This document shows, piece after piece, positions 5,893 to 60,171 of a stretch of 64,000 nt of DNA. How positions within the stretch are numbered: position 1 is the stretch's first letter; each line of letters starts with the position of its first letter. This stretch comes from Squalus acanthias (lineage: Eukaryota). The notes below the pieces were generated by a model that ran no database searches, was not told the origin of the DNA, and was given only the letters and a program-made list of their open reading frames with translations. Location: contig CM059443.1 of NCBI GenBank assembly GCA_030390025.1, forward strand, positions 50,344,001 to 50,408,000, read 5' to 3'. The translations under genes were made by a program, and so were the position numbers.

Positions 5893-14861
<8,969 letters not shown>

Positions 14862-16927: not shown

Positions 16928-18057
16928 TCTGACGTTCTCAGGGTCACCCATGAAGAATGGGCATTTGGGGAAACTGACAGTGCCTGTGGAATGTACCATG
17001 TCTTGAATCCCTGTAGGGGGAGCATTTCTAATCCATACTTTCAGGGTAAGCGGTATTTTGCTAGGTTGTAAAAATACATCGGATTACTCATCTCTTTCGT
17101 ATGCTCAGTAGGCCTACTCTACAATGATCTAATTTCATTGTGAAGTTTTCTATAGAGAAGTGAGTAAAAAAAATATCCTAGACAACAGGAACCACTTTTA
17201 ATTTTTATCGCGCTCAGCTAAGCTTGGTGGTTTTGGAGAGAGGATCCAAGGAAGAGTAGTTATATTTCCCACCCTGTCGACGCTAGCCTTTCCCTCGGCT
17301 CGATTTCCCGGTTCTCTTGGATGATCTCTCACTTCCCCGCGTTGCGCTCTATCTGCCACAGATTTGCCCACTCATTTAGTCTGTCCATGTCCCTTTAGAA
17401 CTTCCTGCTCCCCACCACACAAATGAGTGTGCCTCCTAACAGTGTCGTTTGCAAACTCGAGTACGTAACACTCTCTTCATCCAACTCTTTGATGTATTTG
17501 GTGAAAAGTTGTGGCCCCAGTACAGACTTCTGGAAAGCACCACTTGCCATATCCTGCCAATCAGAGAATGTTCCCTTTATCCCCACTCCCTCCCTTTCCT
17601 ACCTCCCAACCAATTACCGACCCATGTCACAGGGTTCCCTCCAATTCCGTGTGCATTTATTTTTGCTGCTAATCTGTTGCGTGGCACCTTATCAAATGTC
17701 TTCTGGAAGTCCAAGTAGACGACGTCCATAGACAGCAGTTCTGATGAAACTCTGTATCTGCTCAGGTGCTGCCTGACCTGAGCGTTTCCAGCAGCTTCTG
17801 CTTTTATATCACATTTCCAGCAGCTGTAGTGTTTTGCTTTTTGTTCCGTTAGACACTCCCCTATCCACCACACCAGTGACCTCAAAAAAATTGAGCTAGA
17901 TTAGTCAGACATGACCTACGGCTCCTCTTGGCCCGACAAAAATAACTTTTCACTTCCCCTTTTGAGGCCGTTACCTCCTCGCCACCCCGGTCCAACTGGG
18001 TGGATTCTGCTCAGTTATCCCTCGAAATTGCACGGGGGTCTGGTGCGTGTTACAGGA
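16928..18057 (+). repeat. Local duplication, copy 1 (about 1.13 kb; contains a decayed - strand CR1 piece)
   Basis: Essentially identical to 19647-20776 (offset 2719). ORF sets 17395-17885 and 20114-20604 are identical. Confidence 0.95.
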
Positions 18058-19646: not shown

Positions 19647-20776
19647 TCTGACGTTCTCAGGGTCACTCATGAAGAATGGGCATTTGGGGAAACTGACAGT
19701 GCCTGTGGAATGTACCATGTCTTGAATCCCTGTAGGGGGAGCATTTCTAATCCATACTTTCAGGGTAAGCGGTATTTTGCTAGGTTGTAAAAATACATCG
19801 GATTACTCATCTCTTTCGTATGCTCAGTAGGCCTACTCTACAATGATCTAATTTCATTGTGAAGTTTTCTATAGAGAAGTGAGTAAAAAAAATATCCTAG
19901 ACAACAGGAACCACTTTTAATTTTTATCGCGCTCAGCTAAGCTTGGTGGTTTTGGAGAGAGGATCCAAGGAAGAGTAGTTATATTTCCCACCCTGTCGAC
20001 GCTAGCCTTTCCCTCGGCTCGATTTCCCGGTTCTCTTGGATGATCTCTCACTTCCCCGCGTTGCGCTCTATCTGCCACAGATTTGCCCACTCATTTAGTC
20101 TGTCCATGTCCCTTTAGAACTTCCTGCTCCCCACCACACAAATGAGTGTGCCTCCTAACAGTGTCGTTTGCAAACTCGAGTACGTAACACTCTCTTCATC
20201 CAACTCTTTGATGTATTTGGTGAAAAGTTGTGGCCCCAGTACAGACTTCTGGAAAGCACCACTTGCCATATCCTGCCAATCAGAGAATGTTCCCTTTATC
20301 CCCACTCCCTCCCTTTCCTACCTCCCAACCAATTACCGACCCATGTCACAGGGTTCCCTCCAATTCCGTGTGCATTTATTTTTGCTGCTAATCTGTTGCG
20401 TGGCACCTTATCAAATGTCTTCTGGAAGTCCAAGTAGACGACGTCCATAGACAGCAGTTCTGATGAAACTCTGTATCTGCTCAGGTGCTGCCTGACCTGA
20501 GCGTTTCCAGCAGCTTCTGCTTTTATATCACATTTCCAGCAGCTGTAGTGTTTTGCTTTTTGTTCCGTTAGACACTCCCCTATCCACCACACCAGTGACC
20601 TCAAAAAAATTGAGCTAGATTAGTCAGACATGACCTACGGCTCCTCTTGGCCCGACAAAAATAACTTTTCACTTCCCCTTTTGAGGCCGTTACCTCCTCG
20701 CCACCCCGGTCCAACTGGGTGGATTCTGCTCAGTTATCCCTCGAAATTGCACGGGGGTCTGGTGCGTGTTACAGGA
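19647..20776 (+). repeat. Local duplication, copy 2, abutting the 5' end of the full-length CR1
   Basis: Only one mismatch noticed (gtcacccatg vs gtcactcatg); ends at ttacagga. Confidence 0.95.
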
Positions 20777-21331
20777 CCAGCGTCGACAGCGGGGGAGGAG
20801 GAGCCTTTCTTTCTTTCTCTCTCCCACAGAGCGGTCGGCAGCGGGGAAGGAGGAGCGGACCTGGTTGGAGCGGCAGAGGCCTGAGGTGAGTCAATAAAGG
20901 GAGGCCCGAGGCTCAGGTAGGCCTCAGACCAGCGTCGACAGCGGGGGAGGAGGAGCCTTTCTTTCTCTCTCCCACAGAGCGGTCGGCAGCGGGGAAGGAG
21001 GAGCGGACCTGGTTGGAGCGGCAGAGGCCTGAGGTGAGTCAATAAACTCACCTACGTGGCCTTTTTCCCCAGCGGGGTAAGAGCTTCGCGGGCTTTTTCA
21101 AAGGCAGGGGGCGGGGCCAAATCATTGGTACCCGTATATAGGTGGAGCGGTTGCTAAACCCGAGACACTACACTAGTAGTGACTCCCACCCTCCCACCTC
21201 CTCTAACCTTTAGGGGTAGAGGGAATTTAAAAGGTCGGTTCGATTTTATATTTTGTTTTCAGGGACTTAACTCCTGAACCTAAGATAAATAAGTTTAAAT
21301 TTTAGTAATAAAGTAACATAAGGGTTAAGTC

Positions 21332-22276
21332 ATGACAGGAAGTCTCGGACCCGTTTCATGCTCCTCCTGTGCCATGTGGGAAATCAGGGACACTTCCAGT
21401 GTCCCTGACAACTACATGTGCGGGAAGTGTGTCCAGCTGCAGCTCCTGACAGCCCGCATGGCGGTGCTGGAGCTGCGGGTGGACTCACTCTGGAGCATGC
21501 ACGATGCCGAGAACTCGGTGAATCGCTCATTTAGTGAGTTGTCCACACCGCAGGTAAAGGCTAGGACAGACAGTGTATGGGTGACCAAGAAGCAGGGCAA
21601 TATCAGGAAGGTAGTGCAGGAGTCTCCTGTGGTCATCTCCCTCCAAAACAGGTATGCCGCTTTGGATACTGTTGGGGGAGATGGCCTACCAGGGGAAGGC
21701 ACAAGCAGCCAGGTTCATGGCACCATGGCTGGCTCTGCTGCACAGCAGGGCGGGAAAAAGAGTGGTAGGGCTATAGTGATAGGGGACTCAATTGTAAGGG
21801 GAATAGACAGGAGTTTCTGTGGCCGCAACCGAGATTCCAGGATGGTATGTTGCCTCCCTGGTGCAAGGGTCAAGGATGTCTCGGAGCGGCTGCAGAACAT
21901 TCTGAAGAGGGAGGGTGAACAGCCAGCTGTCGTGGTGCATGTAGGTACCAACGATATAGGTAAAAAGCGGGAAGAGGTCCTACAAGCAGAATTTAGGGAG
22001 CTAGGAGCTAAATTAAAAAGTAGGACCTCTAAGGTAGTAATCTCTGGATTGCTACCAGGGCCACGAGCTAATCAGAATAGAGAGAACAGGATAGTGAGAT
22101 TGAATACGTGGCTTGAGCAGTGGTGCAGGAGGGAGGGATTCAAATTCCTGAGGCATTGGAACCAGTTCTGGGGGAAGTGGGACCTGTACAAAAGGGACGG
22201 TCTGCACTTGGGCAGGACTGGAACCGATGTCCTCGGGGTAATATTTGCTAAAGCAGTTCAGGAGGATTTAAACTAA
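21332..22276 (+). CDS. CR1 ORF1p: CxxC...CxxC zinc finger, coiled coil, SGNH/GDSL esterase domain
   Basis: CSSC..CGKC; esterase blocks VIGDS, PGA, HVGTND, DGLHL. Confidence 0.95.
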   Translation: MTGSLGPVSCSSCAMWEIRDTSSVPDNYMCGKCVQLQLLTARMAVLELRVDSLWSMHDAENSVNRSFSELSTPQVKARTDSVWVTKKQGNIRKVVQESPVVISLQNRYAALDTVGGDGLPGEGTSSQVHGTMAGSAAQQGGKKSGRAIVIGDSIVRGIDRSFCGRNRDSRMVCCLPGARVKDVSERLQNILKREGEQPAVVVHVGTNDIGKKREEVLQAEFRELGAKLKSRTSKVVISGLLPGPRANQNRENRIVRLNTWLEQWCRREGFKFLRHWNQFWGKWDLYKRDGLHLGRTGTDVLGVIFAKAVQEDLN

Positions 22277-22323
22277 TATGGCAGGGGAAGGGGAACCTAT
22301 GTAGCGAAACAGGGGGAAGTAAT

Positions 22324-25260
22324 ATGCAGTCAGAAACAAATGTTAGAAGGGTGAGAAACAATAGGGGAAGGCCGAGTAAACAAAGGCAAGAAACACAAAG
22401 GGCCATACTAAATCATAAGTCTAAAAGGACAAAGGATGTTAATAAAATAAGCCTAAAGGCTCTGTGTCTTAATGCAAGGAGTATCCGTAATAAGGTGGAT
22501 GAATTGACTGTGCAAATAGATGTTAACGGATACGATGTGATTGGGATTACAGAGACGTGGCTCCAGAACAATCAAGGCTGGGAACTGAACATCCAGGGGT
22601 ATTCAACATTCAGAAAGGATAGAATAAAAGGAAAAGGGGGTGGGGTAGCATTGCTGGTTAAAGAGGAGATTAATGCAATAGCTAGGAAGGACATCAGCTT
22701 GGAGGATGTGGAATCAATATGGGTTGAGCTGCAGAACACCAAAGGGCAGAAAACGTTAGTGGGAGTTGTGTACAGACCTCCAAACAGCAGTGGTGAGGTG
22801 AGGGAGGGTATGAAACAGGAAATCAGAGGTGCGTGCAAAAAAGGCACGGCAGTTATCATGGGTGACTTTAATATGCATATAGATTGGGCTACTCAAACTG
22901 GAAGCAATACGGTGGAGGAGGATTTCCTGGAGTGTTTAAGGGATGGTTTCCTAAACCAATATGGTGAGGAACCAACTCGAGGGGAGGCCATCCTGGACTG
23001 GGTGTTGTGTAATGAGGAAGGACTAATCAGCAATCTTGTGGTACGAGGCCCCCTGGGGAAGAGTGACCATAGTATGGTGGAGTTCTACATTAGGATGGAG
23101 AAGGAAACAGTTAAGTCAGAGACCATGGTCCAGAACTTAAATAAGGGCAACTTTGATGGTATGAGGCGTGAATTGGCGAGGTTAAATTGGCAAGCGATAT
23201 TTAAGGGGCTATCAGTGGAAGGGCAATGGCAGACATTTAGAGATCGCATGGATGAACTACAACAATTGTACATCCCGGTCTGGCGTAAAAATAAAAAAGG
23301 GAAGGTGGCTCAACCATGGCTAACAAGGGAAATCAGGGATAGTATTAAAACCAAGGAAGTTGCATACAAATTGGCCAGAAGTAGCAGCAAACCCGGGGAC
23401 TGGGAGAACTTCAAAACTCAGCAAAGGAGGACGAAGGGTTTGATTAGGGCAGGGAAAATAAAATATGAAAGGAAGCTTGCAGAGAACATTAAAATGGACT
23501 GCAAAAGCTTCTATAAATATGTAAAAAGAAAGAGGTTAGTAAAAACAAACGTAGGTCCCCTGCAATCGGAAACAGGGCAAGTCGTAGTGGGGAACAAGGA
23601 AATGGCAGATCAATTGAACAAGTACTTTGGTTCGGTGTTTACTGTGGAGGACACACACAACCTGCCGGAAATAAAAGGGGTCAGAGGATCTGGTAAGAGG
23701 GAGGAGCTGAGGGAAATCCTTATTAGTCGGGAAAAGGTATTGGGGAAATTGATGGGACTGAAGGCTGAAAAATCCCCGGGGCCTGATGGTCTGCATCCCA
23801 GAGTACTTAAGGAGGTGGCCTTCGAAATAGTGGATGCATTGACGATCATTTTCCAACATTCCTTAGACTCTGGATCAGTTCCGATGGAGTGGAGGGTGGC
23901 CAATGTAACCCCTCTTTTTAAAAAAGGAGGGAGGGAGAAAGCAGGGAATTATAGACCGGTCAGCCTGACATCGGTCGTGGGTAAAATGATGGAAGCAATT
24001 ATTAAAGATGTCATAACAGACCATTTGGAAAGTGGCGACATGATAGGTCCAAGTCAGCATGGATTTGTGAAAGGGAAATCATGCTTGACAAATCTTCTGG
24101 AATTTTTTGAGGATGTTTCCAATAGGGTGGACAGGGGGGAACCAGTAGATGTGGTGTATTTGGACTTTCAGAAGGCCTTCGACAAGGTCCCACACAAGAG
24201 ATTGGTGAGCAAAGTTAAAGCACATGGGATTGGGGGTAATGTGTTGACGTGGATTGAGAACTGGTTGGCACACAGGAAACAAAGAGTAGGAGTAAATGGG
24301 TACTTTTCAGAATGGCAGGCAGTGACCAGCGGGGTACCGCAGGGTTCGGTGCTGGGACCCCAGCTGTTTACATTATATATTAATGATTTGGACGAAGGGA
24401 TTAAATGTAATATCTCCAAATTTGCGGATGACACTAAATTGGGAGGCAGTGTGAACAATGAGGAGGATGCTAGGAGGCTACAGAGTGACTTGGACAGGTT
24501 GGGTGAATGGGCAAATGTATGGCAGATGAAGTACAATGTGGATAAATGTGAGGTTATCCACTTTGGTGGTAAAAATAGAGAGGCGGACTATTACCTGAAT
24601 GGTGGCAGATTAGGGAAAGGGGAGGTGCAACGAGACCTGGGCGTCATGGTACATCAGTCACTGAAGGTGGGAATGCAAGTGCAGCAGGCAGTCAAGAAAG
24701 CAAACGGAATGATGGCCTTCATAGCAAGGGGATTTGAGTACAGGAGTAGGGAGGTGATGCTACAGTTGTACAGGGCCTTGGTGAGGCCACACCTGGAGTA
24801 TTGTGCGCAGTTTTGGTCTCCTAACTTAAGGAAGGACATTCTTGCTATTGAGGGAGTGCAGCGAAGGTTCACTAGATTGATTCCTGGGATGGCCGGACTG
24901 ACATATCAAGAAAGATTGGGTCAACTGAACTTGTATCCTCTGGAGTTCAGAAGAATGAGGGGGGATCTTATAGAGACATTTAAAATCCTGACTGGTTTAG
25001 ACAAATTAGATGCGGGCAAAATGTTCCCAATGTTAGGGAAAACTAGAACCAGGGGTCACAGTCTAAGGATTAAGGGGAAGCCATTTAAGACTGAGCTGAG
25101 GAGGAACTTCTTCACCCAGAGTGTGGTGAATCTATGGAATTCTCTTCCACAGAAGGTTGTTGAGGCCAGTTCGCTAAATATATTCAAAAGGGAGTTAGAT
25201 ATAACACTCACAACTAGGGGGATCAAGGGGTGTGGCGAGAAAGCAGGAATGGGGTACTGA
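22324..25260 (+). CDS. CR1 ORF2p: AP endonuclease plus reverse transcriptase (978 aa)
   Basis: LNARS, ITETW, VYRPP, MGDFN, SDH (APE); [28 protein letters not shown] (RT). No stops. Confidence 0.97.
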   Translation: MQSETNVRRVRNNRGRPSKQRQETQRAILNHKSKRTKDVNKISLKALCLNARSIRNKVDELTVQIDVNGYDVIGITETWLQNNQGWELNIQGYSTFRKDRIKGKGGGVALLVKEEINAIARKDISLEDVESIWVELQNTKGQKTLVGVVYRPPNSSGEVREGMKQEIRGACKKGTAVIMGDFNMHIDWATQTGSNTVEEDFLECLRDGFLNQYGEEPTRGEAILDWVLCNEEGLISNLVVRGPLGKSDHSMVEFYIRMEKETVKSETMVQNLNKGNFDGMRRELARLNWQAIFKGLSVEGQWQTFRDRMDELQQLYIPVWRKNKKGKVAQPWLTREIRDSIKTKEVAYKLARSSSKPGDWENFKTQQRRTKGLIRAGKIKYERKLAENIKMDCKSFYKYVKRKRLVKTNVGPLQSETGQVVVGNKEMADQLNKYFGSVFTVEDTHNLPEIKGVRGSGKREELREILISREKVLGKLMGLKAEKSPGPDGLHPRVLKEVAFEIVDALTIIFQHSLDSGSVPMEWRVANVTPLFKKGGREKAGNYRPVSLTSVVGKMMEAIIKDVITDHLESGDMIGPSQHGFVKGKSCLTNLLEFFEDVSNRVDRGEPVDVVYLDFQKAFDKVPHKRLVSKVKAHGIGGNVLTWIENWLAHRKQRVGVNGYFSEWQAVTSGVPQGSVLGPQLFTLYINDLDEGIKCNISKFADDTKLGGSVNNEEDARRLQSDLDRLGEWANVWQMKYNVDKCEVIHFGGKNREADYYLNGGRLGKGEVQRDLGVMVHQSLKVGMQVQQAVKKANGMMAFIARGFEYRSREVMLQLYRALVRPHLEYCAQFWSPNLRKDILAIEGVQRRFTRLIPGMAGLTYQERLGQLNLYPLEFRRMRGDLIETFKILTGLDKLDAGKMFPMLGKTRTRGHSLRIKGKPFKTELRRNFFTQSVVNLWNSLPQKVVEASSLNIFKRELDITLTTRGIKGCGEKAGMGY

Positions 25261-34910: not shown

Positions 34911-37511
34911 TCAGGTTTCCTCCATTTTAGCATAAATAGGATTTTCTTCCATTTTTAACGGGCCAGGTCGTGGATCATCTTCCTCCAGCTGGGACTGTGT
35001 CACCGTGTCTACCGGGCAGCCTATCAAAGAATAAATCTGCTCATTGGACAAAGCAACGGGATCCTCCTTACTGTCCTCTTTGGGCTGTGATTGGCCGCCT
35101 GGTTTGAGTTCAGTAGCTGAAGAGGTTTCAACCTGCCGTCCATGGTCCGTGTGGTCTCTGCCTAGATATTAAGAGAGGAGATCACGTTTGATGGGTTCAC
35201 TTCCAGTGGGGGACAGATAATGAAAGTGGACTGTCTCGTTACTTGAGATAAAGGTCCAGGAGCTTTAGAACAGACACAGTGTTGACTGAGAGGATTATAC
35301 TGAAAGATTGCAACGACTTACATTTTACTCCCTGGTTTTCAGTTTTGTCTCCATCACTAGGAAAACAGAAAATTAAACATGTGAATAATGAGTAACATAA
35401 GATTCAAACAATATTAAACCATTGTAAGTGGAGACTAGGTTAGGTCACTTTCTCCCCAGAGCCTGGATTTCAGTCCAGCCCAGACTGAAATTCTCTCATT
35501 CATTTTCTCTCTCTCTGTCTATCTCCCTCTGACTCTCTGATTGTCTCTCCGTCTCTCTTTCTCTCTGTCTCTTTCTCTGTCTCTCTCTCTCACTGTCTCT
35601 CTCTGCCTGTCTCTCTCTCTGTCTGTCTATCTCACTGTCTCTCTCGCTGTCTCTGTCTCTCTCCATTTTCTCTGTCTCTCTGTCTCTGTCTTTTCCCTGT
35701 CTCTAAGTCTGTCTCTCTCCCTGTCTCTCTCTGTCTGTCTATCTCACTTCTCTTTCGCTGTCTCCCTGTCTCTCTTCATTCTCTCTGCCTCTTTGTGTCT
35801 GTCATTCCCTCCCTGTCTCTATGTCTGTCTCACTATGTCTCTGTCCCTGACTCTCTCTCCCTGTCTCTCTCTCTTTCTCTCTGTCTGTCTCTCTCCCTGC
35901 CTCTCCCTTTCTCTCTCTGTCACTCTCTGTCTGTCTGTCTCTCTTACTCTGTGTTGCTCTCTCTCTGTCTCTCTCTCTTCCTATCTCTATCTCTCTTTGT
36001 CTCCCTCTCTCTCTCTCACTGTCTTTGCTGTGTGAGCAGTCCTCTCTGCAATGAGTTTTCACAGTTCCAATCCAGTTCCTTGCCTAAAACTGCGCATCAT
36101 TCAATAAAATATTTGGACTAAATTGAGCATTATGGTCAGATAAGCCAAATATTGTCCTGAGAAAGTTTAATAAAAATAACTTCACACGGGCACAGTGAAA
36201 GGAGCTATTCTGATGTTGGGATAAAGGAGCACTATCAGGTCAGAGGGCAGAGTGCTTTACACGGCCTCTAGCCATTCTATACCTGACTTAGAACTGTTCG
36301 GTTGTGAGATTGGCTGCACAGCCTGGAAATGTTTTATGCTGGATGGTGGAATAGATTAGTACGGCCCTTGATATTTTAGGATCTGCCAAGTCCAGATTAC
36401 TAGGAATAAAAGTCCTCTTTCTGTATCTCCCTGGTCTCTATCTCTGTCTGTCTCTGTCTCTTTCTCTCTAAGGGTCCTTGATGAAATGAATTTGGTCATC
36501 TTGTTCCAGTTTGTAGCTCATGTGAGCCACAGTACAAAACTACCCCAAAATTGTCACTTTCACTCAAACAGCCCATGAGTTGTGAGAAGTGAAAAGTCCG
36601 AGCTCCCTCCTGAGTTTGGAGTTGAGGAGCATTGTTGGGACAGTCCAGAGGGAGCTTTATGCTGCACCTAATCTGGAGTGCTCCAAATATGACTGTGTGG
36701 CCACAGTGGAAAAGTAACCCATTTGCAGAGTGGGCTCCCCTCACCTTCATTACATTAACAATCTCCGAACCCTCCATCCCAAAACAAACCCGTGGTCAGT
36801 GTTGAACGTTGCCGGGGCCGACAGCTGTCACTCTGCTTACCCTTTGACCATTGACTCTTCGATCAAACAGTACACATGCTCTGTAGAGTCAGACTTTGGG
36901 CCAGTGCTCTCCATTCCTTCACCAGGCCTTGGCTGGCTCGATGGCGTTGGAACTCTCGTCACCGAGTACGCAACATGCTCGTTGTCATCGCTCTGATCCC
37001 TTCTGGGAACCACAGAGTACGGGAAACCTAGACAGAAGGACGAGTAGACGATGTGTGCTTTTAGTTTCAACTCTCAAAGGGACAGGCTCGGAAGAGCTGG
37101 GCAGTAATTCTAGTCACTTACATTCAGCCACCTGTGTCAGCTGCACATCACCAGCCCTACAGTTAGCAAAGAAAAGCAACCTGTAAATGTTCCATTAAAT
37201 GAGGAAAACTATGCATAAAGTCTGCCCGAAAACTGAACGAATCCCATCCCTACCTGGGTCCTGGTGCTGAGGATCCTTCACAACACATGCCATAAGATTG
37301 GAAAGATAAATTTAAAAATCTTTGTAAGGAGTCTGCACTTACAATTTTCTAGATTTAGAGCAAACATTTTAAAGCACTTGCTTACCTTTGGCAGCTTGTC
37401 GTTTCCTGTGGATTATGCAAAGTGCCCCAACAATGCAAAGTACCCCAACAATGCAAATGATCACAACCGCACACACTATGGTTACTTTCACAGATGTGGC
37501 AGTGTCTGGAC
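34911..37511 (-). CDS. Ig-receptor copy A, TM plus cytoplasmic exons: complement(join(34911..35161,35322..35356,36841..37027,37122..37156,37254..37275,37386..37511))
   Basis: Six exons of 126, 22, 35, 187, 35 and 251 nt with GT-AG borders and matching phases (1-1-2-1-2-1) form one open frame: SPDTATSVKVTIVCAVVIICIVGVLCIVGALCIIHRKRQAAKGSSAPGPRAGDVQLTQVAECFPYSVV...VAYSVT...EHVYCLI...GDGDKTENQGVKCRDH...EQIYSLI...EENPIYAKMEET*. Confidence 0.82.
35505..36030. repeat. (CT/CTGT)n microsatellite in the copy A intron
   Basis: Direct inspection; a shorter paralogous tract lies at about 50965-51115. Confidence 0.95.
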
Positions 37512-41266: not shown

Positions 41267-41457
41267 TTTGAGTATTTGTAGGAGTTAAGCTGCTGGTCAC
41301 TGAGGAGATTCCAGATGTTGAGGTGGGGGTGTCTGAAGTCTCTGCACTCGCCTCTGTCACAGTAAGGGAGATGTATGCTGCAATCTTCCAGACACGTTTC
41401 CCTGAATCCTGACTGTGGACAGCACAGAGATACCTCCCAGTGTCCACCACATCCGCT
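41267..41457 (-). pseudogene. Copy A truncated V-set/stalk exon (3' half only)
   Basis: ADVVDTGRYLCAVHSQDSGKRVWKIAAYISLTVTEASAETSDTPTSTSGISSVTSSLTPTNTQ then donor gtaagt. Four substitutions versus 55900-56090. The 5' half is replaced by LINE sequence. Confidence 0.9.
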
Positions 41458-43033
41458 AATGAATCAGTACTTTGCCTTGTTGAACACCACTTGGAAGAAG
41501 CACTGAGAGTAGCAAGGGCACAGAATGTACTCTCGGTGGGGGACTTCAATGTCCATCACCAAGAGTGACTCGGTAGCACCACTACTGACCGAGCTGGTCG
41601 AGTCCTGAAGGACATAACTGCCAGTCTGGGCCTGCGACAGGTGGTGAGAGAACCAACACGAGGGAAAAACTTACTTGACCTCGTCCTCACCAATCTACCT
41701 GTCGCAGATGCATCTGTCCATGACAGTATTGGTAGCAGTGACCACCACACAGTCATTGTGGAGACGAAGTCCCATCTTCACACTGAGGACACCCTCCATC
41801 GTGTTGCGTGGTACTACCACCGTGCTAAATGGGATAGATTCAGAACAGATCTAGCAGCTCAAAACTGGGCATCCATGAGGCGCTGTGGGGAAGCAGCAGA
41901 ATTGTATTCGACCACAATCTGTAACCTCATGGCCCGGCATATCCCTCACTGTACCATTACCACCAAGCCAGGGGACCTACCCTGGTTCAAAAAGGAATGT
42001 AGAAGAGCATGCCAGGAGCAGCATCAGGCGTACCTAAAAATGAGGTGCCAACCTGGGGAAGCAGCAACACAGGACTACATACATGTTAAAAAACGGAAGC
42101 AGCATGCTATAGACAGGGCTAAGTGATCCCACAATCAACGGATCAGATCAAAGCTCTGCAGTCCTGCCACATCCAGTCGTGAATGGTGGTGGACAATTAA
42201 ACTACTAACTGGAGGAGGAGGCTCCATGAATATCCCCATCCTCAATGATGGTGGAGCCCAGCACGTGAGTGCAAAAGGCAAGGCTGAAGTGTTTGCAGCC
42301 ATCTTCAGCCAGAAGTGCCGAGTGGATGATCCACATCGGCCTCCTCCTGAGGTCCCCACCATCACAGAAGCCAGTCTTCAGCCAATTCGATTCACTCCAC
42401 GTGATATCAAGAAATGGCTGAGCGCAGTGGATTCAGCAAAGGCTATGGGACCTGACAACATCCCGGCTATCGTGCTGAAGACTTGTCTTCCAGAACTAGC
42501 CGCACCTCTAGCCAAGCTGGTCCAGTACAGGTACAACACTGGCATCTATCCGACAATGTGGTAAACTGCCCAGGTATGTCCTGTCCACAAAAAGCAGGAG
42601 AAATCCAATCTGGCCAATTACCGCCCCATCAGTCTACTCTCAATCATCAGCAAAGTGATGGAAGATGTCATCGACAGTGCTATTAAGTGGCACTTACTCA
42701 CCTATAACCTGCTCACTGATGCCCAGTTTGGGTTCCGCCAAGACCACTCTGCTCCCGACCTCATTACAGCCTTGGTCCAAACATGAACAAAAGAGCTGAA
42801 TTCCAGAGGTGAGGTGAGAGTGACTGCCCTTGACATCAAGGCAGCATTTGACCGAGTGTGGCATGAAGGAGCCCTAGTAAAACTGAAGTCAATGGGAATC
42901 AGGGTGAAAACTCTCCACTGGCTGGAGTCATACCTAGCACAAATGAAGATGGTTGTGGTGATTGAGGGTCAATCATCACAGTCCCAGGACATCGCTGCAG
43001 GAGTTCCTCAGGGCAGTGTCCTAGGCCCAACCA
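41455..43033 (+). mobile_element. LINE family 2 fragment (duplicate of 27845-29397)
   Basis: Paralogous ORFs 41641-43044 with the same 3' breakpoint. Confidence 0.9.
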
Positions 43034-50221: not shown

Positions 50222-50634
50222 GAATGACTTTCAATCACACAAGTTCCATTTTGTGTCTCACACAGCAGCGATGCGTTGTTCTATCTAAACAGAGTCCAAG
50301 GGGGTGAAATTCATTTCCATCAAAGTCGAAACTGGCGAGGACCAATTTCTGCCCCGAGCATGTAGCCGTTACATTCTTCAACTGTGGGTTCCCATCGCCC
50401 ACATCCCGTGTCGGTGAGAGTGGAAATCTCACGTTGAATCTGTCTCCGTGTTTTGTGTCGGTCGTCACAAAACTTCAGAACAGTCTGTGAACGCCAAGGA
50501 GCTGACGCCAGCGGTTTAATATAATTAGCGGAACATTGGGAGAAGATTTCTCCGCACACAATCCTGCGCTTCAAGCAGCCTCAGTGTTACAATCTGTGAA
50601 AACACACTTGCATTCGAGGGGGGCCGGTTGCGCA

Positions 50635-51298
50635 CCTGCCGTCCATGGTCCATGCGGTCTCTACCTAGATATCAAGAGAGGAGATCACGTTTGATGGGTT
50701 CACTTCCAGTGGGGGACAGATAATGAAAGCGGACTGTCTCGTTACATCAGATAAAGCTCCAGGAGCTTTAGAACAGACACAGTGTTGGCTGAGAGGATTA
50801 TACTGAAAGATTGCAATTACTTACATTTTACTCACTGAATTTCACTTTTGCCTCCATCACTAAGAATACAGAAAATGAAACATGTGAAGCATCAGTAACA
50901 TAAGATTCAAACAATAATAAACATCTGTAAATGGATTTGCTATTTTTAACCCCTGGATTTGAATCCGTCTCTCTACTCTTCAATTTTCGCTCTCACCATC
51001 TCCCATCACTCTCCCTTGCCCTCACTCGCCCTCTATCTCTCCCTCCCTCCTTTCTCTCTCTCTCTATGTCTGTCTCTCTCACTCTACCCCTCTCTCCATC
51101 CCTCCTCCTCTCTCTGGACTGTAAGGGTAATTTAGGAAATGATTTACATTCAGCTTCCTGTGTCAGCCACACATTAGCCTCCTACAGTTATTAAAGAAAT
51201 GCAACTGGTAAATGTTTCATTGAATGAGAAAAACTAAACAGAAAGTCTGAATGAAAACTGAGTGAATCACATCCCTGCCACTACCGATGCTGAGGATC
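50635..51298 (-). CDS. Copy B residual short cytoplasmic exons (51285-51298, 51148-51181, 50825-50859, truncated last exon), tyrosine-free
   Basis: Paralogues of the copy A small exons. One in-frame path gives GSSASEANVWLTQEAELMEAKVKFSE*. The donor at 51284 is weak, so the exact tail is uncertain. Confidence 0.5.
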
Positions 51299-55538: not shown

Positions 55539-58500
55539 CCTTGGCAGCTTGCCGTTTCCTTCGGATTATGCAAAGTGCCCCATCAATGCAAACTAGCACA
55601 ACCAAGTACAGAACCAAAACACACATACGTATGTCACTGCAGCTGGTGTAAGGACCTGCAGAGGAGAAGCAACATTAAGTTCAGTCTGTGCAATCCCGTG
55701 TTATATGTACAGCTGATCACACTGGTTACCTGGGCTGAGGAACAGACATTTCCGGTTAGAATCTGGAATAGTCCAATGGCGAAGGAAGTAAATCAAAGCA
55801 ACTTATAACGGCTACAAACTGTACAACTGATCTGGAATCTCTCAGTTTGAATTATTGATATTAAAAGATTCACATCATATTCTAGATTGTATCACTTACT
55901 TTGAGTATTTGTACGAGTTAAGCTGCTGGTCACTGAGGAGATTCCAGATGTTGAGGTGGGGGTGTCTGAAGTCTCTGCACTCGCCTCTGTCACAGTAAGG
56001 GAGATGTTTGCTGCAATCTTCCAGACAGGTTTCCCTGAATCCTGACAGTGGACAGCACAGAGATACCTCCCAGTGTCCACCACATCCGCTGAGTGAATAG
56101 TAAGGTTGTGAGACTGGCGTCTAGCAGTAGGATTGTCTGAGCTTTGGGCAGAGATTCTTTGTGACGACCTTCTGTCCACACAGCGTGTGTTAATTTTTGC
56201 CTCATAACCCTCAATGTGAACAGAGTGCAGACACTTGTTGACGTTTCCAGATCTGATCCAAAACAGAGTGAAGGCGAGGTTTTTTGTATTCTCAAACTGG
56301 CAGGGTAAAGCCACATTTGCTCCCTTTGACACTGTCAGCGACCAGGAGTTTTCTTCAGTAGAAAATATTTCATCTGAATCTATAAACAACATTGAAAAGA
56401 ACCTTTGTTACTAATTATTTAGAAGTGCTGTTCCCACATGTTATCCAGCTGTTTGATGTAAGTGTGAGTCTGACTGTAACTAGCTGTATTATCAGCAGTG
56501 GAGACAGCAGGCGTGGGCCAGGGCCAAATCCTTGTTTGGAATATTTGTCTGATTTTCCCACCGTTAGATTAAACATTCCCCAGCTAGAGGCAGATTGTGT
56601 AAGATCAGGAAACACTCGGGGACTGAGAGCAAGGAGCGAGAAGACAGGACAAATAATGAAAGATCGAACACACAAAGGCAAAAGACAGGGGCAGACACTA
56701 AAGGACAGAGACAAGGGGGGGAGACTTCAAACTCGCTTCTCTGTATCTCGATACCTGGGAATTTTATCCACCCCACCCCCCCCCCGCCCCGCCCAGATAT
56801 TTCCCCAATACCTCCCCTGATACCTCCCCCGATATTGCCCCAGTACACGTACCACTCTGGATTATCACAAAGAACAAGTCGTGGTTTTCACTTCCCTCTC
56901 CTGACAGTGTGAGCCAGGACGGACACTTCGATGATCCTCCTTCTGTGGAATCCTGAGCCGAGCAGGTAAATACCATCGAGTTAAACGTCTTCACATCGAA
57001 TGTCAGAGACTGAGACTCCGTTTGTTCTTCATTTAATTTGCATTTTCTACACTCTGGCTTACTCTGCCTGTTTGTCCAATTAGGACTGATATTTTCACAA
57101 AATTGCATTTCCTTCTCTTTATTCTCACATGTATTGTCAATTTCTGCTCCGAGATCAGTGAAGCTGCACAAGGTGACTTCATCCCCAGCACCAGTGGTCA
57201 CGTTGCACTGCAGAGTGGTGACATCTCCTGGTCCTCGGGAGAAGAGATAAGTGGATCCTGCAGGGAAAGGGCAGAATCGGATAGAGATAAATAACATTCC
57301 ACACAGGAAAGATCATTAAACACTCAATGTGACACAAGCCTCTCACAGTAAATGAGCCTAGATAGACCCCCACCACCCCCTTTACACATTGTGATAGACT
57401 GCCCTCCCATTACACAGTCTGAATCCAGTCCACACCACCCCCTCTCCCTGCCTCCATCACACAGGCCTGGACAGAGATCCCACCCCCACCATAACACATT
57501 CTGACCGAGACCTCACCCCCATCCCCATCATAGCCTGAATAGAGACCCCCCACCCTTTCACTGAGCCTGACTACAGTCATACATAGTACATAGGTTGAGG
57601 TTATTGGAAGTCAATCATCTCAGCTCCATGACATGGCTGCAGGAGTTCCTCAGGGCAGTGTCAAAGCCCAACCATCTTCAGCTGCTTCATCAATGACCTT
57701 CCCTCCATCATGAGGTGACACGTGGGACTGTTCACTGATGATTGCACAGTGTTCAGCTCCATTTCCAATTCCTCAGATAATGAAGCAGTCCGTGCCTGCA
57801 TGCAGCAAGACCTGGACAACATCCAGGCTTGGGCTGATAAGTGATAAGTAACAGTCACACCACATAATGACCATCTCCAACAAGAGAGAGCCTAACCACC
57901 TGCCCTTGACATTTGATGGCATTACCATCATCGACTCTCCCACCATTAACATCCCGGGGTCATCATTGACCAGAGACTTAGCTGCAACAACCACATAAAT
58001 ACTGTGGATACTAGGGCAGCTCAGAGGCTGGGTAGTCTGCGGCAAGTGGCTCACCTGACTCCCCAAAGCCTTTCCACCACCTATAAGGCACATGTCAGGA
58101 GAGTGATGAAATGCTCTCCACTTACGTGGATGAGTGCAGCTCCAAAAACACTCAGGAAACTCAACACCATCCAGGACAAAGCAGTCCACTTGATCGGCTC
58201 CCTATCCGTCCCCTTAAACATTCACTCCCTCCACCACTGGCGCACCATGGCTGCAGTGTGTACCATCTACATGATAGTACCTCGCCAAGGCTTTTACGGC
58301 AGTATCTCCCAAACCCCTGACCTTCACCACCTATAAGAACAAGGGCAGCAGGTGCTTGGGAACACCATCACCTCCAAGTTTCCTTAAAAGTCGCACAACA
58401 TTCTGATTTGGAAATATATTGCTGTTCCTTCATTGTTGCTGGGTCAAAATCCTAGAATTGGCTACCTAACAGCATTGTGGAGCACCTTCACCATTTGGAG

Positions 58501-60171
58501 TGCAGAAGAAAGGCCAAACCCAACTGACCTTCTCAATGGCAACTAGGGATTGGGCAATAAATGCCGGAATTGCCAGTGACACCCACATCCCGAAGAAAGA
58601 TAAAATAAATATGAAGTAATCATCCACTTAATGAGGGAACTTAATTTAAGACGTGGCATTGAATACTGGTTCCTAACTTTCAGGGAGATTATAATAACTG
58701 ATAATTGGTGTGAGGACATTAGTTAGTCCTGTAAAAGGAAAACTTCTGGGTAAATATTATCTTTTTAGTTGGGGTTTCTGTAGAAGGAGGGAATTAGCTG
58801 AAGTTGAATGGTGCAGACCAGAGAGATATTTATAATTGAAAGTATCACTTGATGGAGAGCAATTATATGTAACAAGAGCCGAATTATTTATAAGGTAATG
58901 AAGTAGAGTTATACCAATCTCATTAGCCGAATGGAAAAAGAGCTCGTTATTTAGGAAACCAGCAGTTAGGTAAAGTTATCGATAAGAACTCAGTTCAATT
59001 AGACTCTCCTTATATGGAGTTGTTTTTCAATGCAGAAATGTGCAAATTGTCACATAGTCGGAGTGAGGGGTAAGTACAAAAAGTGGCAGAGTGTAATCAG
59101 TATTTGGATTCGAAGGGGTTTGATTGGCCTAAAACACTGAACATTAACGCGTTTGAGTCGCCAGCCATCAGCTCTTGTAAGTTCTTGTGGTTCTTTGCCA
59201 GAATCAACTCACGGCCTCGCTCTCCCCACAGTGCTCCTGTCTCTTTCACAACTTCAAATGTTTATCCAATTCTCACTTAAATGATAGAATCATAGAATCA
59301 TAGAAAGTTACTGCACGGAAGCAGGCCATTTCGGCCCATCGTGTCTGCGCCGGCCAACAAAGAGCTATCCAGCCTAATCCCACTTCCCAGCTCTTGGTCC
59401 GTAGCCCTGCAGGTTACAGCATCCCAAGTGCACATCCAAGTACTTTTTAAATGTGGTTAGGCTTTCTGCCTCTACCACCCTTTCAGGCAGTGAGTTCCAG
59501 ACCCCCACAACCCTCTGGGTTAAGAAATTCCCATCAAATCCCCTCTAAACCTTCCACCAATGACTTCAAATCTGTGCCCCCTGGTTTTTGACCCCTCTGC
59601 TAAGGGAAATAGGTCCTTTTTGTCCACTTTATCTCGGCCCCTCATCATTTTATACACCTCAATAAGGTCTCCCCTCAGCCTCCTCTGTTCCAAGGAAAAC
59701 AAACCCAGCCTATCCAGTCTTTCCTCATAGCTAAGATTCTCTACTCCCGGCAACATCCTTGCAAATCTCCTCTGTACCCTTTCTAGTGCAATTATATCTT
59801 TCCTGTAATGTGGTGACCAGAACTGCACGCAGTACTCTAGCTGAGGCCTAACTAGTGTTTTATACAGTTGATAAGATCCAAAGCTCTCTGCCTCAACCAT
59901 TCGCTGTGGTAAAGCATTCTCTGCTCCAACAACATTTCTCCTAACGTCTCTCCTCACTGTCTTAGTGCCATTTTTAAACTGATGACCCATGATTAAACCG
60001 TGTTAAAATGCCACAGCAAGGACTGTGATGCGAGCACATTAAACATATTCACAAGAACACCACTGTTTTATATCCTTATCCTATGCTGAAGATTAACTGA
60101 AAGTATTAATCCTTACCTGTAACATGTTGGAACAGAAGGAAAAGACCCACAAACACAGCACCGAGCGCCAT
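55539..60171 (-). CDS. Ig-superfamily type I receptor copy B: complement(join(55539..55655,55900..56379,56853..57257,60117..60171)) = signal peptide, Ig1, V-set Ig2 plus stalk, charged TM
   Basis: All introns are phase 1 and GT-AG. Leader MALGAVFVGLFLLFQHVT. Ig2 has LPC..LFW..LTI..DTGRYLC. TM exon reads SPYTSCSDIRMCVLVLYLVVLVCIDGALCIIRRKRQAAK. An alternative in-frame acceptor exists at 56373. Confidence 0.85.
57595..58600 (+). mobile_element. LINE family 2 3' fragment, decayed
   Basis: gcaggagttcctcagggcagtg through the tail cccacatcccgaagaaa. Confidence 0.85.
59283..59875 (-). mobile_element. CR1 3' fragment
   Basis: ORF 59520..59990; (CATAGAAT)n tail. Confidence 0.9.

Follow-up and report, generated by a model that had tools for sequence, protein, structure and literature searches.

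A conserved arginine-bearing transmembrane exon in a shark paired-receptor family with homogenised ectodomains

The exon at positions 55539 to 55655 of a 64,000-nucleotide stretch of Squalus acanthias contig CM059443.1 (the window) is, judged from its own sequence and those of its relatives, a real, ancient and conserved transmembrane (TM) signature in a shark paired-receptor family. The gene that carries it (gene B) encodes the short partner, with no Tyr in its tail, of a receptor pair found across sharks, and the exon provides its membrane anchor. From residue conservation and by analogy with characterized receptors, we put a probability of about 0.55 on this member being an activating receptor that couples through a TM Arg to a zeta/gamma dimer; an Arg that is invariant among short forms, together with a tail devoid of Tyr, fits an adaptor-coupled activating receptor.

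The TM exon of B comprises 117 nt of the minus strand (55655-55539), is preceded by AG and followed by GT, and is in phase 1 at both ends. Splicing of the V exon to it, across an intron with GT..AG ends, is present in contigs of all four runs, which derive from two studies (eight runs were listed) and whose RNA nature is a guess. The two listed contigs that span the TM exon differ from the window at no letter. An exon with a TM Arg and Asp had been predicted at this position, and its reality is borne out by its minus-strand splice sites and by the contig splicing in all four runs. The original prediction had picked out the correct exon, with two of the four residues that matter most in it, missing Tyr(+7), and the Ser that led its peptide belongs to the junction codon with the V exon rather than to the TM exon proper, which translates as PYTSCSDIRMCVLVLYLVVLVCIDGALCIIRRKRQAAK. 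The features of the exon are listed below, with Arg numbered 0 and conservation counted over eight short and 14 long TMs.

55539..55655, minus strand: TM exon of gene B, C-x3-R-x6-Y-x7-D-G, supported by splice sites, spliced contigs and conservation
55639..55641, minus strand: Cys(-4), one helical turn above Arg, present in all 8 short forms but none of the 14 long
55627..55629, minus strand: Arg(0), which likely docks the adaptor, present in all 8 short forms but none of the 14 long
55606..55608, minus strand: Tyr(+7), in 8 of 8 short forms, with Cys in 14 of 14 long
55582..55584, minus strand: Asp(+15), with Asp in five, Asn in one and His in two of 8 short forms, and Val in 14 of 14 long

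Read in the coding direction, the Arg, Tyr and Asp (GAT) codons occupy 55629-55627, 55608-55606 and 55584-55582, respectively, with Arg close to the top of the helix and Asp close to its bottom. A check of the TM boundaries placed the start of the best 19-residue hydrophobic window three residues past Arg, so that the Arg of the predicted TM segment would lie at the outer edge of the membrane. A scan of the window in six frames finds the pattern YT-x4-[IL]RM a single time, in this exon, and comparison of the exon with the PDB gave one match, at chance level.

The other exons assigned to gene B also lie on the minus strand:

60117..60171, minus strand: coding part of the signal-peptide exon, from ATG to a GT donor, matching the N-termini of shark homologues
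56853..57257, minus strand: domain 1, rich in Cys and without an assigned fold, linked to domain 2 in contigs of four of four runs
55900..56379, minus strand: domain 2, an Ig V-set domain with a Ser/Thr-rich stalk (PF07686, E 2e-8), the acceptor at 56379 being taken from contig joints
51298-51285 and 51181-51148, minus strand: two diverged, putative cytoplasmic mini-exons, with 82% identity to the corresponding region of copy A
50825..50859, minus strand: likely tail-ending exon of 35 nt in a shifted frame, giving an 18-residue tail
50525..50664, minus strand: last exon, diverging from the Tyr-rich last exon of copy A after ∼30 nt

The tail of B is without Tyr by each of the eight splice routes tried. 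The translation of the 50859-50825 exon matches the ends of three short orthologues (P0006, P0011 and P0012), and the joint that links it to the TM exon is predicted, being absent from the contig matches shown. The intron between domains 1 and 2 has GT..AG ends in contigs of all four runs. These contigs also carry a 3-base insertion at window position 56180, which restores the second Cys of a Cys-Cys pair present in the homologues, whereas the window allele encodes a single Cys. What appears to be the beginning of a second stalk exon (55690-55735, minus strand) lies in the intron that precedes each of the two TM exons; sawshark proteins use this exon in full, and a similar piece is found in one run X5 contig.

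A Foldseek search with the model of the sawshark orthologue returned PD-1 and TCR V domains at 12-27% identity. Domain 1 has no Pfam match with E < 0.1, and a search of 1.84 billion proteins gave six matches, of which five are members of the shark family; the sixth, P0026 (E 2e-4), was discarded as weak and unrelated. Modelled alone, domain 1 reached a pLDDT of 31, and there was no confident model of it in the full chain either. Profile comparison with domain 2 gave a probability of 0.04, Atlas matches to V-set clusters scored < 0.9 and are a lead only, and sequence matches in the PDB had E values of 0.3-0.7 only. Strand-like motifs in domain 1 give a hint of a very divergent Ig fold. Relatives of this domain were found in sharks only.

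Relatives of gene B were recovered exclusively from sharks, in 13 named species, under automatic names such as 'uncharacterized protein'. Homologues from rays, skates, chimaeras or bony fish were not among the matches of exact-word searches and of a search scoring 7988 candidates, and no MDIR or CD300 protein surfaced in the homologue searches. The 56 family proteins examined comprise 17 with a polar TM, 33 with Val in the TM and six without a TM. Polar-TM proteins have tails of ∼6-52 residues that lack Tyr in 15 of the 17, and 32 of the 33 Val-TM proteins have tails of 125-195 residues with 4-8 Tyr. Short and long forms occur together in seven of the 13 species, under separate LOC identifiers in three of those seven. 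Tallies and trees were based on 20 of the 56 proteins, one per distinct form, plus the exons of the window, with isoforms, TM-less models and two partial models from the small-spotted catshark omitted. Of 15 long tails, only 8 contain a canonical ITIM, all 15 have at least two YxxL/I/V motifs and none has an ITAM or ITSM, so that the inhibitory role proposed for the long form is not secure. Long tails, including that encoded at 34911-35161 (minus strand), also have a conserved terminal NPIY (NPxY-type) and carry VAYxV and HVYC besides the ITIM-like motifs. The short form P0002 (Heptranchias) contains the two-domain unit twice (four domains), reflecting either a real duplication or a fused gene model.

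Common to all eight short TMs are Pro(-8), Cys(-4), Arg(0), Leu(+4), Val(+5), Tyr(+7), Cys(+13) and Gly(+16), and position +15 is occupied by a hydrogen-bonding residue in every one (Asp in five, Asn in one, His in two). The 14 long TMs have no Arg at 0 and, without exception, Cys at +7 and Val at +15. Lack of conservation of Arg and Asp had been set beforehand as grounds for rejecting adaptor coupling, and this outcome was not observed: Arg is kept in every one of the 8 short forms and missing at that column from the 14 long ones, while +15 varies to Asn and His. The short forms P0017 and P0021 (Hemiscyllium and Stegostoma), which have His(+15), show a shortened hydrophobic stretch after +15, and the helix register may be shifted in both.

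The motif likenesses that had been proposed for the exon do not extend to the family. The LRC-like YTxxxxIRM is complete only in the window sequence (1 of 8), with Tyr(-7) in four, Thr(-6) in four, Ile(-1) in two and Met(+1) in four of the short TMs. The NxxR of FcR-gamma-coupled LRC-type TMs, as given in the available part of PMC2413239, is in none of the eight, the residue three before Arg being Ser in seven and Thr in one. Likewise, the FxxDT of CD16 and FcepsilonRI (PMC13107469) occurs in 0 of 8, with Ile (six), Val (one) or Ser (one) at its -3 position and Gly at its +1 position in 8 of 8.

The window contains a second copy, A, of which there remain only 190 nt from the 3' end of domain 2, a TM exon without charge and a tail in open frame with five Tyr:

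41267..41456, minus strand: remnant of copy A domain 2 (3' 190 nt), 97.9% identical to B and fused to an L2-like element
37386..37511, minus strand: neutral TM exon of copy A, containing an 18-nt duplication
37275-37254, 37156-37122, 37027-36841, 35356-35322 and 35161-34911, minus strand: copy A cytoplasmic exons, in open frame with five Tyr
55652..55772, minus strand: run of 121 nt without a difference between A and B, which extends 4 nt into the TM exon, with neighbouring introns 79-88% identical

The tail of copy A closely resembles the sawshark long tail, and a tblastn search within the window found no signal peptide, domain 1 or 5' part of domain 2 for this copy. A and B share 94-99% identity in their 3' flanks, and the junction of A with the L2-like element at 41456 (41452-41469) contains three shared bases, a microhomology. 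We read this arrangement as two tandem genes with subsequent loss of the 5' half of A by deletion, with an assembly error as the alternative. The long, Tyr-tailed copy A of this haplotype may then be a pseudogene, or its tail may be spliced from the V exon of B. Long domain 2 contigs from all four runs carry the letters of B and run on into the TM exon of B; among the contigs listed, none has the letters of A at 41375, at 41395 or across the L2 junction, a result that is uninformative on expression of A.

A marker for the locus is provided by the neighbouring gene PSMA4:

6527..13653, plus strand: PSMA4 exons, with a Pfam proteasome match in 4 of 127 ORFs and matches to PSMA4 chains at E 1e-31

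A GC-rich tandem array with seven copies spaced at 67 nt lies at 520-1122, near the presumed 5' end of PSMA4. Downstream of the gene, a 1130-nt direct repeat with 99.9% identity (16928-18057 and 19647-20776) is either a recent duplication or an assembly artefact, and an apparently intact LINE, which we take to be CR1-like, has open frames of 315 and 1002 residues (21329-25257, plus strand).

The TM exons of A and B are 53% identical over the 5' 66 nt (40 of 75 columns) and 90% identical over the 3' 51 nt (46 of 51). The low 5' value agrees with the earlier statement that this half does not align with A, although the misalignment is partly due to an 18-nt tandem duplication (17 of 18 identical) within the exon of A. 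The one-base difference noted at the Asp position, GTT in A and GAT in B, is seen, but the change is common to members of what we take to be five shark orders. Acquisition of the 5' half from another gene, for example an LRC-type receptor, at any time including before the shark radiation, would fit both the identity of just 53% and the partial likeness to the LRC motif, but the acceptor context and phase are the same as in copy A, both types of exon start with Pro-Tyr/Asp-Thr in some species, the spacing to Cys(+13) and Gly(+16) is constant, and the motif is complete in just one of eight sequences. We regard such an import as highly improbable; the original suggestion of an imported TM piece is countered by the sharing of Cys(+13), Gly(+16) and splice phase between short and long exons. 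The 121-nt identical run is likely to be a gene-conversion tract. Over the Arg-Tyr segment the identity drops to 53%, and it is back at 90% from the surroundings of Asp onwards; since the identical run stops at the start of the TM exon and similarity resumes at Asp, homogenisation would have spared the Arg-Tyr-Asp segment. Conversion appears to have reached the signature from either side and to have left it intact.

The same opposition of parts is evident across species. V domains cluster by species, each short form being 86-99% identical to its own long partner versus at most 69-80% to the short forms of other species, and monophyly of the short V domains is rejected (p-AU 4e-95). Domain 1 follows the same pattern, with 90-99% identity to the own partner versus at most 57-77% to other species. 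The TM exons, by comparison, split by type with a support of 100/100 (32 columns only), and the short TM exons of all species fall on one side of this branch, contrary to the view that the Asp is a recent one-base change from A. On these trees, the TM exon of B is an old paralogue of that of copy A, and the proteins are paired receptors with homogenised ectodomains; gene conversion would be the cause of ectodomains that group by species and TM exons that group by type. The short/long pattern covers what we take to be five shark orders and both shark superorders. The split of the superorders, at > 200 million years, is older than that of rodents and primates. It is conceivable, as one part of a joint reading that we hold only tentatively, that the opposite signalling exons of the pair have been kept since before that split. 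The contrast between ectodomains grouped by species and TM exons grouped by type corresponds to what is named merohomogenisation for mammalian paired receptors in the available text of PMC3210942.

We propose that Arg(0), at the top of the helix, likely pairs with both aspartates of a dimer of CD3-zeta or FcR-gamma, and that this dimer would provide the short form with its activating signal. In CD89, NKp30, NKp46 and TCR-alpha, the zeta/gamma (RDD) signature is an Arg close to the top of the TM; the pairing has been described for CD89 and TCR-alpha, whereas for NKp30 and NKp46 it is assumed (PMC13107469, in the part available). CD3-zeta is expressed in sharks (PMC10529500, PMC10768021) and a 2014 survey of early assemblies did not find FcR-gamma in shark genomes (PMC4016189), which, going by the accessible portions of these papers, makes zeta the only documented shark adaptor. 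A literature search found no paper joining FCER1G, CD247 and shark, and term searches for shark adaptor genes returned nothing relevant from one supplement file each of PMC3964593 and PMC10529500. PMC6795676 contributed nothing further.

Tyr(+7) and the Asp, Asn or His at +15 probably contribute further hydrogen bonds, either with the adaptor helices or with another receptor chain. Tyr(+7) may touch the adaptor Asp pair, as the Tyr of TCR-beta does; that Tyr joins the RDD site, and in simpler receptors a well-placed basic residue suffices (PMC13107469, available text). Both shark positions lie roughly on the Arg face of the helix, which is a weak argument, with three random positions sharing an 80-degree arc 15% of the time. 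In a modified version of the original suggestion, Arg would bind the adaptor Asp pair and the lower Asp, Asn or His the adaptor Thr, like the Asp of CD16 and the Asn of CD64, both contacts being required. The +15 residue is in the lower half of the helix, remains hydrogen-bonding in 8 of 8 though adjacent codons are homogenised with a Val-bearing paralogue, and shows an Asp/Asn exchange that mirrors the FxxDT of CD16 and the FxxNT of CD64. However, the motif-defining Phe and Thr are missing in 8 of 8, and the shortened hydrophobic stretch below +15 in the two His-bearing orectolobiform proteins changes the depth of the residue, and docking that depends on both levels seems unlikely to us.

Cys(-4) probably forms an interchain disulfide, and the disulfide of zeta likewise sits one turn above its Asp pair (PMC13107469, partial text). 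NKG2D, a disulfide-linked homodimer, binds DAP10 via Arg, and an activating receptor coupled to DAP10 or DAP12 would suit the combination of Cys(-4) and Arg; yet the partners of DAP12 have a central Lys, DAP10 is apparently used by NKG2D alone, and the shark Arg sits at the top of a type I helix, which makes this form of coupling quite unlikely. Arg(0) could instead be an interfacial anchor to lipid headgroups, with no adaptor involved, the Cys, Tyr and polar residue building a homodimer or a heterodimer with the long form and the short form serving as a decoy or regulator. The placement of Arg at the membrane edge is in keeping with this, as is the usual homodimer design of zeta and CD28, in which Tyr hydrogen bonds accompany a disulfide. 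An anchor could be Lys, however, yet Arg is kept in all eight short TMs and missing from every long TM (14 of 14), and none of the eight has the Y(sm)xxxT motif of homodimers; we consider a receptor of this kind improbable. Coupling through Arg to a zeta/gamma dimer is the reading we prefer. In its most elaborate form, which we advance with considerable doubt, the pair is undescribed and its activating member would represent a fourth way of zeta/gamma assembly, one helix gripping the adaptor at both levels, with Arg and Tyr at the Asp pair and Asp, Asn or His at the lower Tyr-Thr staple; Cys would be level with the adaptor disulfide and the link may be covalent.

If Arg docks an activating partner, the family would be an unusually old on/off immune receptor pair. 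To our knowledge, few adaptor-coupled innate receptors have been described in cartilaginous fish, and the family offers a clean activating/Tyr-tailed pair at one locus across sharks, in which the natural Asp, Asn and His variants at +15 make the rules of TM assembly directly testable. It also bears on whether Arg-type zeta/gamma coupling predates bony fish and on which adaptor sharks use, given the 2014 report without shark FcR-gamma. The persistence of both signalling types under ongoing ectodomain homogenisation points to a lasting, fast-changing ligand, which the short and long forms would bind with opposite outcomes. The loss of the 5' half of A would make this an activating-only haplotype, if there is no intact copy elsewhere. 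A literature search found no description of the family, most subscription journals being outside its coverage, PSMA4 was absent from the papers that one such search listed, and the family is apparently undescribed.

The short form resembles CD89/FcalphaRI, LILRA, GPVI, OSCAR, NKp46, NKp30 and Xenopus XFL TM1 in having Arg near the top of a type I TM, and it shares with Arg-type (RDD) receptors a short, motif-less tail and a Tyr-tailed partner (available text of PMC13107469 and PMC2413239). Unlike the Arg-type receptors as described there, its TM lacks NxxR (0 of 8), has an invariant Cys one turn above Arg and adds Tyr(+7) and Asp/Asn/His(+15), and its ectodomain consists of the Cys-rich domain 1 and one V domain. 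In XFL a single exon encodes both TM1 and the tail (PMC2413239, same part), but the shark tail has exons of its own. Unlike LRC/KIR-like receptors and XFL, the family has no homologous Ig ectodomain, and searches recover shark proteins only. The Y(sm)xxxT dimers (zeta, CD28 and CTLA-4; PMC13107469, in part) also differ, the residue at Tyr+5 in the shark TMs being Ile in six, Ser in one and Val in one, with a small residue at Tyr+1 in two of eight. As in KLRC, KLRI, KLRB, KLRA and PIR, ligand-binding parts are homogenised per species and opposite signalling parts persist, but the shark pattern spans an older split than the mammalian merohomogenised pairs in the accessible part of PMC3210942. 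An Asp or Asn low in the TM helix is reminiscent of CD16A, CD64 and FcepsilonRI-alpha, in contrast to which the shark TMs have neither Phe(-3) nor Thr(+1) in 8 of 8, tolerate His and carry a basic residue that CD16A is without. The modular domain immune-type receptors (MDIR) of skate, which like CD300/TREM are V-type, are chondrichthyan receptors with activating and inhibitory forms. The shark family would be set apart from MDIR/CD300 by the additional domain 1. Shark members of the CD28/PD-1 family share the V-set fold, PD-1 being the top Foldseek match at 22-27% identity, but they have a single V domain rather than two domains, most CD28 members have a CDR3 proline motif that is missing here, and their synteny markers are other than PSMA4, which the shark pair adjoins (PMC11599192, as far as available). 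By the features tested, the family is placed outside the LRC receptors, the classical FcR and the CD28 members, and in its working it would be an Arg-type paired receptor.
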